Below, one piece after another: positions 2,365 to 61,920 of a stretch of 64,000 bases of DNA. Within the stretch, counting starts at the first letter, position 1, and each line of letters opens with the position of its first letter. This DNA is from a phage, in the sequence record PZ452611.1. One strand, written 5' to 3'. Both the position numbers and the translations under genes were made by a program. The notes under the pieces are model-generated. The model saw nothing but the letters and a program-made list of their open reading frames with translations, was not told the origin of the DNA and searched no databases.

Positions 2365-2794
2365 CGACCATCTTCTGAGGTGATATAGTTTCCACAACAA
2401 CTAAGAGAGGAGAGCACTGTGGAGACTAAAATCTTAATTCTTGCTGTGGTAGATACAACCGAAGGAGCTATATTCGAATCTGCAGGAGGGTATTTCTACC
2501 TACCCTACGGAAAAAGAACTGCCGAACCGGGTAAAGATTCAATCATCAAAGTGTTCCCGTGTGCTTTCTGGCTGGAGATTCTGGCATGAAAACCTGCATG
2601 TGTGTGTCCACGCAATCGGATAATCAAGGGCTGTTTGAAGAATATCCAGTAATAGATGGGCCTAGCATATCCTTGTGCGACTTCCTGACTGGGACACGTG
2701 GTGGCTGTACAAAAGTGATGAATATTCAGGCTATTACTTTGCAAAAACATTTACCGGAGAGTTGGTATTTGTTCTGGAGGACTGAGGAGGGCTT

Positions 2795-3850: not shown

Positions 3851-4040
3851 GCTTAAATCTGCATGGAACATCGCTGTGGGTGATGAGATCCGTATCCCCG
3901 GTGGGAAGACCATTATGAAGATATCTCGTATTGAGTACGAAGGTGACCGTGTATTCCACATCTTCGCAGAAGATGGTCGAGAAATTTATATACAGGCAGG
4001 TTCTCACATTTATATCCGTAAGAAAGGGGACGACAAATGA
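3837..4040 (+). CDS. hypothetical protein
   Basis: 67 aa ORF, AGGAGG RBS, 14 nt overlap with upstream gene. Confidence 0.45.
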   Translation: MQMFKLKSAWNIAVGDEIRIPGGKTIMKISRIEYEGDRVFHIFAEDGREIYIQAGSHIYIRKKGDDK

Positions 4041-4366
4041 CAGAGATCATCATTTCAACTGCAGGGTATGTGTTCCTGACAATCATTGCACTGACTATTT
4101 TGGTGACAGTGTATGGGTTTGTTATCCTTCCTATCCTTGAGACATTTAGTTTGTGTCGGTGTTGGAGAAAAGCTTACGGTCCACAACCATGGAAGGACTG
4201 GCCCCACCTAGTGCGCTTAGCGTTCTCTTATGCTTACGATCACTCCAGCAGTGCATGCATAACCGGATACCACGCCCACAACTGGAGCTGGGAAGGGTTG
4301 AGGAAATGGAATGTTACAAAGACCATACCTCTGCGCATGTACAAACCTAAAAACAAAGACAGCTGA
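4037..4366 (+). CDS. hypothetical membrane protein
   Basis: 109 aa, hydrophobic N-terminus, ATGA overlap with upstream stop. Confidence 0.4.
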   Translation: MTEIIISTAGYVFLTIIALTILVTVYGFVILPILETFSLCRCWRKAYGPQPWKDWPHLVRLAFSYAYDHSSSACITGYHAHNWSWEGLRKWNVTKTIPLRMYKPKNKDS

Positions 4367-4384
4367 TACTTGAAAATTCCTGGC

Positions 4385-4960
4385 ATATCAAGTATAAGGG
4401 GGATTTCTAAAATGGATTTCCTCCTTTTGATATTTCACCGGGCTGGATATTTTAAAATTCTTAGAAAATCAGAAAATGGATCGAAAACTAAAATGGATTT
4501 TTTCAGCACAGGCGCGGAAAATTGTGCCAATCTATCTAGCCGTTTGCACCATATTCGAGATCACCGTTCCAGATTTCCCACACATACACACCTCTCCACC
4601 ATACCTTTCTCCACTCACTCTTAGTGATTTATGACGGAAAACCCATCGCTATCAGTGAGTTGCGGTACAATTTTTCCAGTACTCGATCTACTTTTCATCT
4701 CATGGCTTGGATTTTCTGAAAATTTTTCTCGATAAATTTCTCAGTACTCGATCTGTTTTTCGTTTTCTGAATCGGATTTTCTGGAAATCGTTCCGGAGCT
4801 CGACCTGAAATTTTTGGGGACGAAATCGATTTTTCGTTTTCAGAAATGGATTTTTAAAATTTCTATATGGGAATATTTTATGGGATACTGTTTTATAGGA
4901 AATTGTTACGGAGGGTAATTAGCATGCTAACTAAATTTATGAAATGCGAAAAGTTCTCAT
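4385..4960. repeat. ORF-poor repeat region (AAAATGGATTT x4, GGATTTTCTGRAAAT x2, TACTCGATCT x2)
   Basis: short direct repeats read directly in sequence; no convincing RBS-led ORF. Confidence 0.6.
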
Positions 4961-4974
4961 TTAGAATTTTGAAT

Positions 4975-5190
4975 GATAATCATTCTCGTTTGCAGAATAA
5001 CGGGCACCCCCGGTGATTGTCTCCCGGCCCCTACTGCCCCGGCTTGTTATTATAGTAACACACAGGACAAAGAAAGCAAGAAGTTTTTGCATAAATTTTT
5101 AGACGATAATGATAATCGTTCTCATTTTATGCAGCGCCCATCCCCGGTGGTTGTCTCCCCCGTCACCGGTGCCTGCCGTCCTTTCGATAG
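4975..5190. repeat. two ~55 bp direct repeats (GATAATC..TTGCAG..CACCCCCGGTGATTGTCTCCC)
   Basis: copy at 4975-5030 and 5108-5165; related inverted copy at 13801-13850. Confidence 0.55.
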
Positions 5191-5381
5191 GTATATTGTG
5201 CCACCTGGCGGGGCCGCTGTCAACACTTTTCAAAAAATTTTTCTAACCTGATGCGCTAACCGCTGCAACCTGGCGGGGCCAGCCTGGCAGGACCTAACTG
5301 ACCAGGTAGGAGAGAATGAAGGCTTATAATCTGGTGGGCCTGTGCTATAGGATAGGTAACAATTGAAGAGGAGGTACAAAA

Positions 5382-5564
5382 ATGAAAGGTAATATGATCC
5401 CCCTGGAAAATGTAGCGATTAATGACGCTGAGGCTATCGCCCTGGTTGAAAAGGCTATGGCGGGAGCGTTGGAACATAAAGAAGAGTACGAAAAATGGTG
5501 GTTAACCTGGCGGGGGCGGCGGCTGGAGAATTCTGCCCAAAAAATAATTTTAACTAATGGTTGA
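5382..5564 (+). CDS. hypothetical protein
   Basis: 60 aa, GAGGAGG RBS. Confidence 0.5.
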   Translation: MKGNMIPLENVAINDAEAIALVEKAMAGALEHKEEYEKWWLTWRGRRLENSAQKIILTNG

Positions 5565-5905: not shown

Positions 5906-6304
5906 ATGAAAACCACTACCTTTAATTTTGATAATGCAGACTTTTCTTTTTCTGATGTCAAGAACTGCCGCCGTGATCGTGGATTTTACAAGGCTTATAA
6001 TCTGGTGGGCCTGGACGATGACAATAATTTGCACGAAGTAGCTGAGATCCGGTATTATGCCGCCGCCAGTGGGAACACTTACTACTGCGTTTTTTGGATA
6101 CACGACAACAAGAACAATAAGTACGGCTATACTGGCGGCAAGGCAAGCGGTCACGGTTATGATAAAGCTAACGCAGCACTTGAGAGCGCATTAAATGCCA
6201 TGGGGATCACTGCCGACGGCTGGATCTACGAAGAAGAGTTTTTGTCGGCACTTGCTGACCACCTAGGCTATAAAAAGCACATTGTAACATGCGCCCACGA
6301 ATAA
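5906..6304 (+). CDS. hypothetical protein
   Basis: 132 aa, AAGAGGA RBS. Confidence 0.55.
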   Translation: MKTTTFNFDNADFSFSDVKNCRRDRGFYKAYNLVGLDDDNNLHEVAEIRYYAAASGNTYYCVFWIHDNKNNKYGYTGGKASGHGYDKANAALESALNAMGITADGWIYEEEFLSALADHLGYKKHIVTCAHE

Positions 6305-13756: not shown

Positions 13757-13787
13757 AAACAGGGCTTGCAATGGTCCTGTTTTTTGT
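13757..13787 (+). terminator. putative rho-independent terminator
   Basis: ACAGG-loop-CCTGT followed by TTTTTT. Confidence 0.45.
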
Positions 13788-13800
13788 TATACTTATTCCA

Positions 13801-13850
13801 CGGCAGGCACCTGGCGACGGGGGGAGACAATCACCGGGGGGTGCCTGTCA
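13801..13850. repeat. inverted copy of GGAGACAATCACCGGGGG element, internally palindromic
   Basis: reverse complement of the 4995-5022 / 5143-5190 motif. Confidence 0.55.
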
Positions 13851-15412: not shown

Positions 15413-15429
15413 TTTCTTAACTAAACTAT

Positions 15430-15459
15430 CAGGGGCTTTAAAAGGCCCCTTTCTTTTGT
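15430..15459 (+). terminator. rho-independent terminator
   Basis: AGGGGC-ttttaaaa-GGCCCCT followed by TTCTTTTG. Confidence 0.7.
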
Positions 15460-16059
15460 CTGTATTTCTCCTACCACAAACGGCCCAGCCTGGCAAGTGG
15501 AATAATTGACTAGCCAGCAATTACCAACACTGTACAAATATACATATAAAATAACTATTGCATAATCTTTCATCTTGTGGTAGCAGGGCCATTTTTACAC
15601 GTTTTCCTTCCAAAATTGCACGTAATGCAGCTATTGCATAAAATTTAACCTGATGCACATCTTCAATAGCTTGTCAACAACTAAAAATCTTTATAAGTCA
15701 TACACTTACATAACCACAAAAGCGTGTTCTACGTGAAAAATCGAGTATAACTATAGCCGCCAGATCTCAGAATTTACGTACGCTCACCATTCTATAGTCT
15801 GCTAAGTATTTATTCCAACCATAGAATAACAGAATAGTCAATACCTGCATAAAATAATTATTCGTGTAAACTGCATAACATAAATCAGCCGGGGTGTCAA
15901 CATTTTTCGTAAACGGCTCGAAATTATCACTGTGAGCTATCATAAACAGAGAAATCTTTAGTCGTCTAATGTTTACTGTACGTTACTATACTAACTGGAA
16001 TCATTAGATGACTAATAAAAAGATAAGAAATCATTAACAATGCAATTGTTTTATTCATA

Positions 16060-16395
16060 ACAATAAGGCAACTATGCAAACGAATGGCATGGCGCGACGG
16101 AGTCGCGACATAATATAAAAGCAGTAACCATCACCCCCGTGATAGTTTGTCTGCAAACTATTAATCAGATCATAGTTGCCTTGTATTTAGTTAATCATGA
16201 CATAAACTCAGGCATAGCCTTCGTCTCGAGGATGTTAACAAGCAAGGCAACTATAGATCTTCTAATAGTTGCCCTGCTTTTATATTATGTCATAGAAACA
16301 CCCGAAGGGGTGACCAAAGGTCACCTGGCATAGCCAGTGAAATATTGTAAACAAGTTAATTATTATCATGCAAACGAATGGCATGGCTTATCATC
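16060..16395. repeat. repeat cluster: TGCAAACGAATGGCATGGC x2 and GGCAACTAT/ATAGTTGCC x4 in alternating orientation
   Basis: read directly; no coding support. Confidence 0.55.
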
Positions 16396-16560
16396 TCTGT
16401 GTAAATAGTTTGTTTGTAAACAGTTTATACGTGAACAGTTAGCTGTGTAAACTATCAGGCATGTAAGCTATTGAGCATGTAAACAGTAAAGGTCGTGAAC
16501 AGTAAGCGAGCGAATAGTAATGGCGTGAACAATGACAGCGTAAACAGTCAGGCATGTCAA
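16395..16560. repeat. iteron-like array, about 9 copies of GTRAAYAGT at 12-17 bp spacing
   Basis: GTAAATAGT, GTAAACAGT, GTGAACAGT, GTAAACTAT, GTAAACAGT, GTGAACAGT, GCGAATAGT, GTGAACAAT, GTAAACAGT. Confidence 0.6.
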
Positions 16561-18016
16561 TTATGTTCAGTGTGTCACCATTATGTCATATTGTGTCAGA
16601 CAAGTTTTTCTCCTCTTTGTCAAGTGCTGCATGAAAAATTTACAATCTGGTATGGTAGCATTTTTGCGGCCCTGTTTACATTCAGTACTGTATGTATAAG
16701 CCTTGTTGTGTGGGCGCTTAGACGTCTAGACGGTTGGAAGTCTGCAGGTCAATATCTAATCTATTGGTTGCTAACTATATCCCACACAAATAGTAAGAAA
16801 TGCAATTGTTATATGCGTAAACTGTAACTCATGTTATCAATCCCTGTATGGATCGCCAGTGGTGCGCATAATAGGTATTATGTTAAATTGCCAGTAATGA
16901 TAACTATTCTCACAGTGATAGGTATTCTCATTCAACCCCACAAGATAGGTTGCAAATGTTGTGCCACTGTGTGAACGGCCTCGCCTATTAATTTGCCTCA
17001 CTGCCTCGATATTTGAGAATTATTATAAGAATGAGAAGTATTCCCATTTCGTCCGCCTGGCAGCACTCCTGTAGGTCAGGTCAAAATCGGGAGAGAACTG
17101 GACCTGTTCAGATATTTCTGGCTGGCTCTTCAGGTCTGTGTGGGAAAAGCCGACCCCTCCGGCGGCGGGGAGGGGGTCAATTAAAAAATTTACGGGGCAT
17201 ATGAAGCGCTCTTCAGGTAAGGCATGTATTATGGGATGAAACCCTCTTCAGGAAATGATATTTGTGGGTGTGATATTTGCTGGAAAGCTAGATATGACTG
17301 GACTCCTGGCGGGGCAGGGGTAGTACAGACAGGGGAAATATGGGGGATGTAGTTGGGTAAATTGATCAGGCAGGTAGAGTATGGAATATGTTACGAGTAT
17401 GTTAAATATGGAGGGTGAATATCTGCAGGATTTGTGTGTAAAATCAAAGACTTAAGTGGTGTTGTGGTATTTTCTATAAATAATTCAAGTTTAATAGGTG
17501 ATATTTGTCCCTATCCACTTTGTGTGGTAAACAGATTCAGATGAGATTGGTTTACGAGTGTATACATAATATACAAATTAAAGATACAAGAAACCCCCCT
17601 CCCCCTTCGGCTACCATTCACCTTTTCCTCTGACTGGTACTTAAACACTTATTCAGACTCTTCAGGTTATCACCCATATATCATATGGCAGTGACTGGTG
17701 TCCTCCGGCCCCTCTTTCGTCACCCGTCCGCTTCGCCATGCTAATGCCATAGCCAATGGTTCGGTTGTTCACCCTGTTCACTCAGGTGTATCTCCATACC
17801 CCTTCAAACCGAAGAGAACAGAAAACCCGAATTACTCGGTAAAAGAAAAGAGAAGAACTTAATTTTATCAGGATAAGCAAGAATGTCAAGGCATGACTGC
17901 TCACTAAACAAGCAAACAGTCATGTGTGGGAGGTAAGTGATTGTGGTGGTAGGAAATTTAGTTGAAAGATGTGTTATAGGTGCTCCCAGCACTTTAGCCG
18001 GGTAGCTAATTGTGTG

Positions 18017-59239: not shown

Positions 59240-59314
59240 GCCCTGTTAGCTTAGTGGATAAAGCAGCGGCCTTCTAAGCCGTTGACACTGGTTCGAGTCC
59301 AGTACGGGGTGCCA
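59240..59314 (+). tRNA. tRNA-Arg (anticodon TCT)
   Basis: hand-folded cloverleaf: 7 bp acceptor with two G-U pairs, anticodon loop CTTCTAA, T-loop TTCGAGT, CCA encoded. Confidence 0.75.
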
Positions 59315-59318
59315 AATT

Positions 59319-59405
59319 GGGGAGTTATCCCGTAGAGGTAGCGGTGTAGACTGTAAATCTATTGTCATTGCGACTCGGGTGGTTCGACTCCACCACTCCC
59401 CACCA
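59319..59405 (+). tRNA. tRNA-Tyr (anticodon GTA)
   Basis: perfect 7 bp acceptor GGGGAGT/ACTCCCC, loop CTGTAAA, long variable arm, T-loop TTCGACT, CCA. Confidence 0.8.
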
Positions 59406-59519
59406 AATTTATATTTTTAGATGCATAAATAATACAGATAATGGCATTGATATTTATCGTCGTTTATACTAGTCACTAACTGCTCGAAAATCAGTGTCAT
59501 TATCAGTATAATTTATAAA

Positions 59520-59610
59520 GGAGGGTAGGGAGCAATGGTGCTCAAGCGGTCTTGAAAACCGTCCCGTTGAGGATGACTCGATGATGGTTCGATTCCATTA
59601 CTCTCCGCCA
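59520..59610 (+). tRNA. tRNA-Ser (anticodon TGA)
   Basis: acceptor GGAGGGT/ACTCTCC, loop CTTGAAA, long variable arm, T-loop TTCGATT, CCA. Confidence 0.75.
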
Positions 59611-59708
59611 CATTGTTGACCTTGTAATTAAGCGAAAGCCGGAAGCAGAACCGGATTATCAAATGTTACAGTCGTCATCGCCGACTAGCAACATGGTCAA
59701 CATACTGA

Positions 59709-59805
59709 GCTAGGTAAGCCCTTTGGCAAGGGCGAGGATTTTTAATCCTGAAAATAGACGAGGTAGTCGTTGAATACATAGGTGGTTCGATTCCATCACC
59801 TAGCA
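59709..59805 (+). tRNA. aberrant tRNA-like element (possible tRNA-Lys TTT-like with about 30 nt extra arm)
   Basis: perfect acceptor GCTAGGT/ACCTAGC, canonical D-arm and T-arm (GGTGGTTCGATTCCATC), anticodon-like loop TTTTTAA, but 30 nt insertion between anticodon and T arms. Confidence 0.35.
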
Positions 59806-59812
59806 CCTTTTT

Positions 59813-59888
59813 GCTGATGTAGCACAATCGGTAGTGCAATTGATTTGTAATCAATAGGTTGTAGGTTCAAGTCCTGCCATCAGCACCA
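59813..59888 (+). tRNA. tRNA-Thr (anticodon TGT)
   Basis: acceptor GCTGATG/CATCAGC, loop TTTGTAA, T-loop TTCAAGT, CCA. Confidence 0.8.
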
Positions 59889-59889
59889 A

Positions 59890-59964
59890 GGCCCTGTAGC
59901 TGGAAGGTTCAAGCAAGCGACTCATAATCGCCAGACGGTGGTTCAATTCCACCCAGGGCCACCA
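59890..59964 (+). tRNA. tRNA-Met (anticodon CAT; Ile-lysidine type not excluded)
   Basis: acceptor GGCCCTG/CAGGGCC, loop CTCATAA, T-loop TTCAATT, CCA. Confidence 0.75.
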
Positions 59965-59975
59965 AATAGTAAATA

Positions 59976-60052
59976 CTCCGCGTAGCTCAGCTTGGTAGAG
60001 CGCCTGATTTGGGATCAGGAGGTCGAGTGTTCGAATCACTCCGTGGAGACCA
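59976..60052 (+). tRNA. tRNA-Pro (anticodon TGG)
   Basis: C1-G72 acceptor, D-arm GCTCAGCTTGGTAGAGC, loop TTTGGGA, T-loop TTCGAAT, CCA. Confidence 0.8.
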
Positions 60053-61156: not shown

Positions 61157-61584
61157 TGTCTAAGATTTACGGACCGTGTTCTGAAAAGCAGAAGATGATC
61201 CTCGAAAACGATGCAGATATCTTGGTAATCGGCGGTGCAGCAGGGTCTGGCAAGTCGTTCCTCTTGCAGTTGATGCCACTTAAAATTATTGATGACCCCC
61301 ACAGCTCTGTGGTTATGTTCCGAAGAACAACCCCACAGTTGGAAGGTGAGGGTGGGCTATGGCCTAAAGCAGTAGCTATTTATAGTGATCTGCCTGAAAA
61401 CATTAAGCCAAAGTTTAGAGAGAAGGATCATAAGTTCATTTTTCCACGGTTTGATCCGAACACTGGCAAGTGGGATAGAAGCAAAAAGGGAGCTGTTGTA
61501 AAATACTGCCACATGGAGTATGTACAAGATAAGCTTAACCATCAGGGGCTTGAGTACACCATGGTTTGCTTCGATGAGGGTTAA
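61156..61584 (+). CDS. terminase large subunit, exon 1 (ATPase N-terminus)
   Basis: Walker A GGAAGSGKS, Walker B-like CFDE; frame closes at TAA inside putative intron. Confidence 0.6.
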   Translation: MSKIYGPCSEKQKMILENDADILVIGGAAGSGKSFLLQLMPLKIIDDPHSSVVMFRRTTPQLEGEGGLWPKAVAIYSDLPENIKPKFREKDHKFIFPRFDPNTGKWDRSKKGAVVKYCHMEYVQDKLNHQGLEYTMVCFDEG

Positions 61585-61587
61585 TTT

Positions 61588-61920
61588 GTAGCTCTCGTAA
61601 AACCTCCCTAATTGCGGGGAAATCTTTATTATTGACACCACCAACCTGTTATGGTAACATAATAGAGGCTTCGAAGAGAGATCGAAGGTATGGTAACAGT
61701 GTGTTAATTTAGATAATCCGCAGCGAAGCATCCGAGAGGATGAACGTTCAACGACTAGTCGAAAGACGTAGAATCAAGCGATTCGAAACGGGAGGGTAAG
61801 CGATTGTTGTCGCTTATAAGATATAGTCTGGTCTGCATGGAGACATGCAGCTGCCTGAGAATGGCGGGGCAAGACTAGCGACCTTGCCTGAACATAAACG
61901 ACACAATTCGAATGGGAGCA
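61588..61920 (+). mobile_element. group-I-like intron 1 (no ORF), boundaries approximate
   Basis: ORF-free insert between terminase frames; shares AATTGCGGGGAAATC and ATAGTCTGGTCTGCATGGAGACATGCAGC blocks with second insert. Confidence 0.5.

Follow-up and report, generated by a model that had tools for sequence, protein, structure and literature searches.

The 64,000-nucleotide stretch of phage DNA analysed here (sequence record PZ452611.1; hereafter the window) holds, between the stop codon at 4366 and the start codon (ATG) at 5382, a real, conserved and apparently undescribed regulatory region with no convincing gene. Repeats, boxes of the type found beside bacterial iron genes, conserved promoters and a common order of parts recur there across genera of the phage subfamily Vequintavirinae. 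Our preferred model, to which we give a probability of about 0.45, is that the host metalloregulator Fur gates leftward non-coding transcription from this conserved control region into an array of three long direct repeats (iterons), and it suggests that the phage reads or manipulates the iron status of its host.

Across 4300-5450 the window matches E. coli O157 typing phage 5 at 100% identity and phage rV5 (Vequintavirus) at 99.9%; the name rV5 is used below for the sequence. The same region is found in 122 phage records at 80-95% identity and is retained at ≥80% coverage in all 108 of 108 close relatives. In rV5 the locus lies within a long run of small rightward (plus-strand) genes of unassigned function, downstream of the genes for rIIB, a helicase, a primase/helicase and a T7-like DNA polymerase. 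In Bas57 the equivalent locus falls between bas57_0096 and bas57_0100. The flanking and downstream proteins gave no known function by Pfam or PHROGs, and no iron-related gene lies nearby.

The left block of each of two repeats of about 55 bp is, by its sequence, a near-consensus predicted Fur box, which the initial annotation missed, as it did the leftward promoters and the layout of the iterons. A match of 16/18 to the palindromic consensus AATGATAATNATTATCATT was not reached in Markov shuffles (0 sites at ≤2 mismatches in 100 shuffles), and 131 of the 138 kb of rV5 contain no other strong Fur box. The box number among Vequintavirinae varies from 1 to 4, and at the position of the weak box 0 of rV5 both GAP31 and KpS8 carry a better second box. 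Each strong window box is one base off the exact 19-mer AATGAKAATCATTCTCATT (half-sites TGAGAAT/ATTCTCA), which the boxes of related genera match exactly. Scanned in one genome per bacterial species, this 19-mer gave at least 120 matches in Proteobacteria, Firmicutes, Cyanobacteria, Actinobacteria and others, against a chance expectation that we estimate from the size of the collection as a handful. The first open reading frame (ORF) on each side of 120 listed sites yielded 90 ORFs for a Pfam search with no matched control set; they include nine TonB-dependent receptors, seven Fe3+-type periplasmic binding proteins, four FUR, four FeoA, two FTR1, two BFD and one IucA/IucC protein. This gene set is a Fur regulon, its enrichment being judged against general expectation. 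By sequence and genomic association, the window boxes are thus predicted members of the Fur-operator family.

In bacteria the Fur box is a textbook operator. The rV5 boxes share its 19-bp palindrome, and in many bacteria identical 19-mers lie by TonB-dependent receptor, fbpA-like, feoA and fur genes. The rV5 boxes differ in that they sit in gene-free DNA of a strictly lytic phage with no iron gene close by, about 55-80 nt past promoters that face away from the neighbouring genes rather than over a -35 or -10 element. As a conserved trait of the gene-free control regions of virulent phages, Fur boxes were not described in the literature searched, including the rV5 genome paper.

The right block of each repeat contains a core that occurs exactly, as CCCCGGTGRTTGTCTCCC, at 5008-5025 (+), 5142-5159 (+) and 13822-13839 (-), that is three times in 64 kb compared with 0.04 expected; no further copy was found in the 131 kb of rV5 searched. 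The initial annotation read this core on the wrong strand: CACCCCCGGTGATTGTCTCCC is best read on the minus strand as GGAGACAAUCACCGG, where it would form part of the leader of a leftward transcript, with the motif GGAGACAA(U/A/C)CACCGG and a predicted Fur box about 55-80 nt past the start. Two predicted sigma-70 promoters, P-1 and P-2, point leftward, antisense to the neighbouring genes. The predicted start of P-1 at ~5045 places Fur box 1 at about +56 to +74, and that of P-2 at ~5188 places Fur box 2 at about +63 to +81, so that both boxes lie at +55 to +80 of leftward promoters. Box 1 overlaps just a weak rightward candidate promoter (8/12), and box 2 overlaps none.

Conservation supports these promoters. 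P-2 is conserved in the related loci L018, L029 and L041 and recurs in other genera as TTGACG, TTGCAA or TTGACA promoters, and in GAP31, CR3 and Hena1 the scan tool detects a pair of minus-strand promoters at matching positions. Orthologous promoters read TTGCAA-17-TATATT, TTGATC-16-TATTAT, TTGACC-17-GATAAT and TTGACA-16-TATTAT, and over about 14 sequences the hexamers stay near consensus and the spacers are constant in length (16-17 nt) and variable in sequence. The retention of spacer length without spacer sequence is the footprint expected from real promoters. In Certrevirus, Seunavirus and Mydovirus a tandem GTAAA-N5-GTAAA motif, absent from rV5, stands at about -40 to -60 of a leftward promoter; we take it to resemble the CpxR box consensus.

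The arrangement of these parts is conserved too. A sensitive BLAST search with 4930-5310 as the query finds the boxes and core (4943-5027) at 80-89% identity in the unannotated DNA of five groups, namely Certrevirus (CR3 and Pectobacterium phages), Seunavirus (GAP31, PVP-SE1), Mydovirus (KpS8), Erwinia phages and Serratia phages. The loci read in these relatives follow a uniform order of short A/T-rich motifs, three units of ~65 bp with CTCGATC and ATCG(T/G)ATTTT sub-motifs, one to four Fur boxes and the core, after which come an AT-rich hexamer, a GC-rich spacer of 16-17 nt and a TTGNNN hexamer, which together are the minus-strand sigma-70 promoters. The layout of promoter, core, Fur box (at ~+55 to +80) and three iterons is retained in at least five Vequintavirinae genera, and the three-unit ~65 bp architecture (GGGTTCTCGATCG...ATCGTATTTTTTCT) is shared by GAP31, KpS8 and CR3.

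In rV5 each iteron unit carries (G)TACTCGATC or GAGCTCGACC, with GGATTTT about 30 bp further on. At GC 0.34-0.39 the array is AT-rich, its plus strand being rich in T, and GATC stands at 4685 and 4750. It shares with iteron-type or transcription-activated origins at least three regular direct repeats beside an AT-rich stretch.

One difference in layout concerns the second box. In other Vequintavirinae genera an element of ~85 nt that is GC-rich (CTACCGGCGATCCACC...GCCCCGCCTTTTCGCCGTGGGGTGGCG; the S element) replaces the second Fur box and core of rV5. Its central hairpin is swapped in one relative (L037) for an unrelated yet self-complementary sequence, and in Erwinia phages CCAA/TTGG takes the place of its CCCC/GGGG stem. 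Rfam gave no match for the element, and the folds of both its strands are ambiguous.

Features of the control region, of related cassettes and of the repeats near it. Positions are those of the window unless a related locus or contig (L number) is named.
Feature	Position	Strand	Sequence or remark
Predicted Fur box 1	4972..4990		AATGATAATCATTCTCGTT; 16/18 to palindromic consensus; 15/19 to classical GATAATGATAATCATTATC (frame 4969-4987)
Predicted Fur box 2	5108..5126		AATGATAATCGTTCTCATT; 16/18 to palindromic consensus
Fur box 2, classical frame	5105-5123		GATAATGATAATCGTTCTC; 17/19 to GATAATGATAATCATTATC, 0.03 expected
Weak Fur-like box 0	4943..4961		AATGCGAAAAGTTCTCATT; 13/18 to AATGATAATNATTATCATT
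Core copy 1	5005..5025	-	minus-strand sense GGGAGACAATCACCGGGGGTG
Core copy 2	5139..5159	-	minus-strand sense GGGGGAGACAACCACCGGGGATG, preceded by GGACGGCAGGCACCGGTGAC
Predicted sigma-70 promoter P-1	5052..5079	-	TTGCTT (5079-5074), 16 nt, TACTAT (5057-5052)
Predicted sigma-70 promoter P-2	5195..5223	-	TTGACA-17-CACAAT, TG extension; scan-tool call, 10/12
Candidate weak rightward promoter	4969..4998	+	TTGAAT-18-CAGAAT; overlaps Fur box 1; not favoured
Three iterons of 65-74 bp	4669..4860		starts 4669, 4734, 4808; spaced 65 and 74 bp
Three AAAATGGAT motifs	4409..4498	+	at 4409, 4473, 4490
Fourth AAATGGAT	4844		inside iteron 3
GC-rich motif (A)CCTGGCGGGGCC, two copies	5204-5213, 5269-5278	+	one copy is the P-2 spacer
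Cassette copy 3	13766..13849	+	TTGCAA (13766-13771), 16 nt, TATACT (13788-13793), then core in 10-bp inverted arms
Mini-ORF, 16 codons	5316..5366	+	holds 23-mer 5320-5342; peptide unconserved
Gene-internal 23-mer	5991..6013	+	codes KAYNLVGL in ORF 5906-6304 (PHROG 7028, unknown function)
GTAAA-N5-GTAAA	L002 ~2641-2665; L003 ~2639-2665; L004 ~2640-2665	-	just upstream of P-1 -35
S element, ~85 nt, GC-rich	L002 2674-2769; L003 2672-2767; L004 2673-2768; 12 others		absent from window/rV5
Cassettes in uncultivated contig	L283 417-548; L285 1710-1841, 2656-2787, 3287-3418		

The third exact copy of the core lies well outside the region. The initial annotation described it as inverted, internally palindromic and placed between a terminator and a promoter, and it is so: arm GGCAGGCACC (13802-13811) pairs with arm GGTGCCTGTC (13840-13849), with a duplex energy reached by 1.6% of shuffles (p ~0.016), a terminator-like hairpin with a T-run stands before it and a TTGACA...TAACAT promoter after it. 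A second promoter, TTGCAA-16-TATACT, overlaps the terminator, with its -35 in the loop of the terminator hairpin, and aims into copy 3. Copy 3 is the same predicted promoter-then-core cassette facing the opposite way, and as such confirms the unit. It is conserved in Phapecoctavirus, Certrevirus and Salmonella phages, and three of its Certrevirus counterparts carry, 49 nt past the core, a Fur box (2-3 mismatches). The suggestion of a dispersed regulatory element is supported, in the form of a promoter-plus-leader cassette that has three copies in rV5 and is shared by Phapecoctavirus and further genera of Vequintavirinae. Four copies of a similar cassette stand in a 46.8-kb contig of an uncultivated phage, which is unrelated and has no BLAST match to known phages; there each TATAAT promoter is followed ~22 nt on by GGAGACAA(T/A)CACCGGGG and a U-run, upstream of small genes, so the leader motif is not confined to Vequintavirinae. 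A scan of viral contigs with a 15-nt core pattern returned mainly chance hits.

These features may be combined into a mechanism. The right half of the region (4943-5223) would comprise two tandem minus-strand cassettes, each made up of a sigma-70 promoter, a leader and a near-consensus Fur operator. In an iron-replete cell Fur-Fe2+ on the boxes would block or limit leftward transcription. Once Fur is inactivated by a shortage of iron, or titrated by phage DNA as this replicates, transcription would enter the iteron array and the AAATGGAT motifs, and the array may be bound by a phage protein and serve as an origin-like or other cis-acting site. An origin-like role is possible since tandem promoters leading into AT-rich repeats recall the origins of T7 and T4, and rV5 has T7-like replication genes.

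Were Fur to bind, a phage subfamily would tie part of its early programme to the iron status of the host. Biocontrol and typing of E. coli O157 make wide use of this subfamily, and in both the gut and infected tissue iron is a limiting nutrient. The model would thus bear on the efficacy of phage therapy, and iron or delta-fur hosts would provide a simple handle on a non-coding region of 137-kb genomes.

Several observations weigh against gated leftward transcription. Classical Fur repression is promoter occlusion, and because the boxes lie downstream of the leftward start sites and not over -35 or -10 elements, the roadblock by Fur is a conjecture. P-1 in rV5 matches consensus at 8/12, under the threshold of the scan tool. 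The pairing of cassette and Fur box is not obligatory, since rV5 copy 3 and the Phapecoctavirus copies are without a box. The region contains no DnaA box TTATNCACA, and if an essential cis-acting site, for instance an origin, is sought, the gene-free region at 15420-18000, described below, is the better candidate. In the literature searched, transcript, Fur-binding and replication data for this phage group were not found. Finally, RNAalifold on the core leaders returned no consensus pairs, and no more than 5-7 of 20 copies did better than shuffles when tested for folding and arm pairing, without asymmetry between the strands.

The last of these results also bear on the proposal that the element is a small RNA, which is not borne out, there being no Rfam match, no intrinsic terminator and structure tests mostly at shuffle level. 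Rfam gave nothing relevant at the gathering threshold in the window, and searches of 4300-5500 and of the GAP31 locus to E 10 gave chance-level matches only (E ≥0.3). The mean folding z is -1.1 for the sense and -0.8 for the antisense strand, 5 of 20 copies show significant pairing of the 5' arm with the 3' arm, without G-U strand asymmetry, and no intrinsic terminator was found by scan after the leader. The palindrome of copy 3 is real and is not a family trait, the conserved part being a linear motif. A stem of 3-4 bp, CCGG...CCGG (GGGG...CCCC in L020), may exist around the conserved loop. Likeness of the leader to an ops, boxA or MntR site, seen by eye, was rejected as the critical bases are unconserved.

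The most serious alternative, which we nevertheless consider unlikely, is that the whole region is a transcription-activated replication origin of the kind represented by the T7 primary origin and the T4 R-loop origins. The tandem leftward promoters would then make a G-rich RNA that primes or opens the AT-rich iteron array, with Fur as an accessory host factor or as a stop that sets the 3' end of the RNA. Consistent with this, two to three tandem leftward promoters are followed by three regular iterons at GC 0.34-0.39, the leader is G-rich on the RNA-like strand, and rV5 possesses a T7-like DNA polymerase and a primase/helicase, with no RNA polymerase of its own noted. As in T7 and T4, tandem promoters precede an AT-rich repeat stretch; unlike them, rV5 would use host sigma-70 promoters and units of 65-74 bp, and places a host metalloregulator site between promoters and repeats. 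That spacing is unusual for iterons, the cassette occurs without iterons as copy 3, and the lack of DnaA boxes counts here too. Strand skew is uninformative, as it tracks the direction of transcription, and the rV5 authors concluded likewise. The association of a Fur box with 18-41 bp iterons or DnaA-box clusters in the unrelated viral contigs L008, L013, L019 and L028 speaks for an origin, and the stronger origin candidate at 15420-18000 speaks against it.

That second gene-free region, of 2.6 kb and GC 0.34-0.39, lies between the rightward and the leftward gene blocks. It carries five exact GTRAACAGT repeats within 16416-16548 (133 bp; 1.2 expected per whole window), two weaker Fur-like box pairs (16896-16932, 17012-17048) and a CCTGGCGGGG motif at 17305. 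A 'non-coding' box and a skew change in the rV5 genome paper coincide with it. By a mapping that we infer, it is probably the insertion-free intergenic region of ~2 kb in Bas54 (HIDEN-SEQ preprint).

The exact Fur box also occurs in IMG/VR contigs unrelated to rV5, a few hundred bp from likely origin features. It stands by DnaA-box clusters in L008, by 20-bp tandem iterons in L013 and by 18-bp tandem iterons in L028, while L019 combines 41-bp iterons with an array of at least five Fur boxes at 26 bp spacing and L012 has an array of at least five boxes at 34-37 bp spacing. A broader and rather doubtful proposition is that unrelated lytic phage lineages set consensus Fur operators by iterons in origin-like non-coding DNA, either to license early non-coding transcription or replication by the iron status of the host, or to titrate Fur and turn on host iron uptake during genome amplification. 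In that case the Vequintavirinae region would offer the first example open to experiment, E. coli K-12 hosts and BASEL phages being at hand.

A different view of the same DNA, which was our first reading and now appears quite unlikely, is that a Fur-repressed rightward promoter (TTGAAT-18-CAGAAT) makes an iron-starvation RNA from ~5005. This RNA, with the conserved 5' end GCACCCCCGGUGAUUGUCUCC, would show full complementarity to the copy 3 leader and to the leftward RNAs at their 5' ends, and the outcome would be an antisense pair like IS10 RNA-IN/RNA-OUT or a RyhB-like phage small RNA. The geometry is attractive: the box nearest the core has TTG in nearly all genera and lies at a constant 18 nt from C(A/T/G)GAAT, Fur repression classically works from a box placed between -35 and -10, and copy 3 holds a perfect complement of 18-20 nt. 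The likeness to IS10 pIN/pOUT and other convergent-promoter pairs extends to a rightward start, if real, ~40 nt from that of P-1, with 5' ends that complement each other fully; in rV5, by contrast, the rightward promoter is doubtful and no coding target starts in the overlap. The hexamers match at 8/12 and are not called by the scan tool, the '-10' differs from genus to genus at its critical second base (A, T, G, C), and neither a terminator nor an Rfam match was found. Moreover, the GAATAGCGGGCA block and 'CAGAAT' are kept in copy 3 of Certrevirus, with the Fur box 49 nt off and no -35 in range there; conservation of the block thus needs no promoter. With box 2 also lacking a usable -10 at 16-18 nt, and the leftward promoters being the conserved ones, the rightward RNA was downgraded.

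It is decidedly unlikely that the boxes act simply as a Fur sponge. Here hundreds of copies of two to three high-affinity operators on amplified phage DNA would titrate Fur, as in a natural Fur titration assay, and derepress host iron uptake, supplying iron-dependent phage enzymes, and the position of the boxes relative to promoters would be incidental. The consensus quality of the boxes, their variable number (1 to 4) across Vequintavirinae and the regular arrays of at least five boxes in L019 and L012 (at 26 and 34-37 bp) are what a sponge might show. However, the position of the box at ~+55, between leftward promoter and iterons, is fixed across genera, which argues for coupling in cis, and the quantitative plausibility of a sponge comes from general knowledge of Fur abundance.

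Very improbable is the explanation that the region contains only promoter-bearing recombination cassettes, homogenised like the PeSL cassettes of T4-type phages (PMC2839356, PMC4122927), with a fortuitous likeness to Fur boxes. Common to both are a short, conserved unit with a sigma-70-type early promoter among small early genes, here small ORFan genes, a terminator hairpin fused to a promoter (in copy 3), and nearby short repeats that are recombinationally homogenised, as in the concerted evolution of the 23-mer pair described below. In rV5, however, the conserved part is the leader past the start together with the Fur box and not a stem-loop, and copies 1 and 2 are antisense and without an upstream stem-loop. 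Instead of many dispersed copies bounding insertions and deletions there are three copies per genome, in 131 kb, and recombinational exchange is found only at the 23-mer. The Fur-box match is far above chance in a sequence that marks bacterial iron genes, and the order of parts is kept over several genera at 80-89% identity in non-coding DNA.

That the small proteins of the GenBank records (rV5 gp194, gp193 and gp192 and their Bas57/58 equivalents) are what this region encodes is barely credible: ORFs of 84 and 92 codons are present and are annotated in related records, but the 92-codon ORF begins at an ATG within Fur box 1 without a ribosome-binding site, ORF calls differ from annotator to annotator, those of CR3 leave 958 bp without any ORF call, a poly-A length difference lies within an ORF, and in other genera the boxes, core and promoter hexamers are conserved and not the reading frames. 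The 'hypothetical proteins' gp193 and gp194 are most likely not genes, a reading that corrects database annotation. A minus-strand ORF of 43 codons (4961-5092) with a hydrophobic N-terminus was considered as a type I toxin and set aside, having no ribosome-binding site and no conservation in other genera. Captured host DNA was rejected on a BLAST search of 4930-5310 against 5,426 complete E. coli genomes, which gave no match. A genome terminus or pac site was likewise rejected, as some records begin near the locus but in a number close to chance expectation.

The repeats listed in the initial annotation are present in the sequence far above chance and require small corrections only. The two repeats of about 55 bp are real, each being made of two 90%-identical blocks (4972-4991/5108-5127 and 5005-5025/5139-5159) with diverged sequence and a 2-nt length difference between them. 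The fourfold occurrence claimed for AAAATGGATTT applies only to AAATGGAT; exact copies of AAAATGGATTT number two (4409, 4490), and near copies stand at 4473 (AAAATGGATCG) and 4843 (GAAATGGATTT). GGATTTTCTGRAAAT does occur twice (4709, 4774), both copies belonging to the iteron units. The GC-rich motif (A)CCTGGCGGGGCC recurs at 5506, 12066 and 17305.

The claimed 23-bp duplicate is exact at 5320-5342 and 5991-6013, with none expected by chance; the mini-ORF around the first copy was said to occupy 5313-5363 and needs shifting by three nucleotides. In MaxTheCat, HeinrichReichert and the relative L018 the intergenic site reads GGCTTGCAAACCTGGTGGGCCTA, already resembling the gene-internal AAGGCTTATAATCTGGTGGGCCTA, and in relatives it has a promoter-like TTGCAA-17-TATAGG upstream of gene 5382-5564. 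The rV5 intergenic copy is identical to the gene-internal version across 23 nt, and both rV5 copies end in G, those of the other phages in A. This co-variation of the copies between lineages points to short-patch gene conversion, by which two direct repeats at a distance of 671 bp have evolved in concert. The duplicate is, on this comparison of sequences, a short gene-conversion patch joining two older similar segments and separate from the control region. The notion of a recombination scar thus survives for the 23-mer and fails for the region as a whole, which is a conserved non-coding control region. The mini-ORF is not a gene, since its frame and length shift between phages (16 or 11 codons, with ATG replaced by GTG in L018).

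On the minus strand at 5997-6024 a promoter-like TTGTCA-16-GATTAT overlaps the gene-internal 23-mer, with a GC-rich spacer similar to those of P-1 and P-2. At the left edge of the region an 8-bp inverted repeat (4363-4398; ATACTTGA...TCAAGTAT) directly follows the stop of ORF 4037-4366 and could be a weak two-way terminator closing the region on that side. Elsewhere the window carries a group I intron, matched by Rfam over its full length at 84.9 bits, beside a cluster of six tRNA genes (61572-61850 and 59240-60049).

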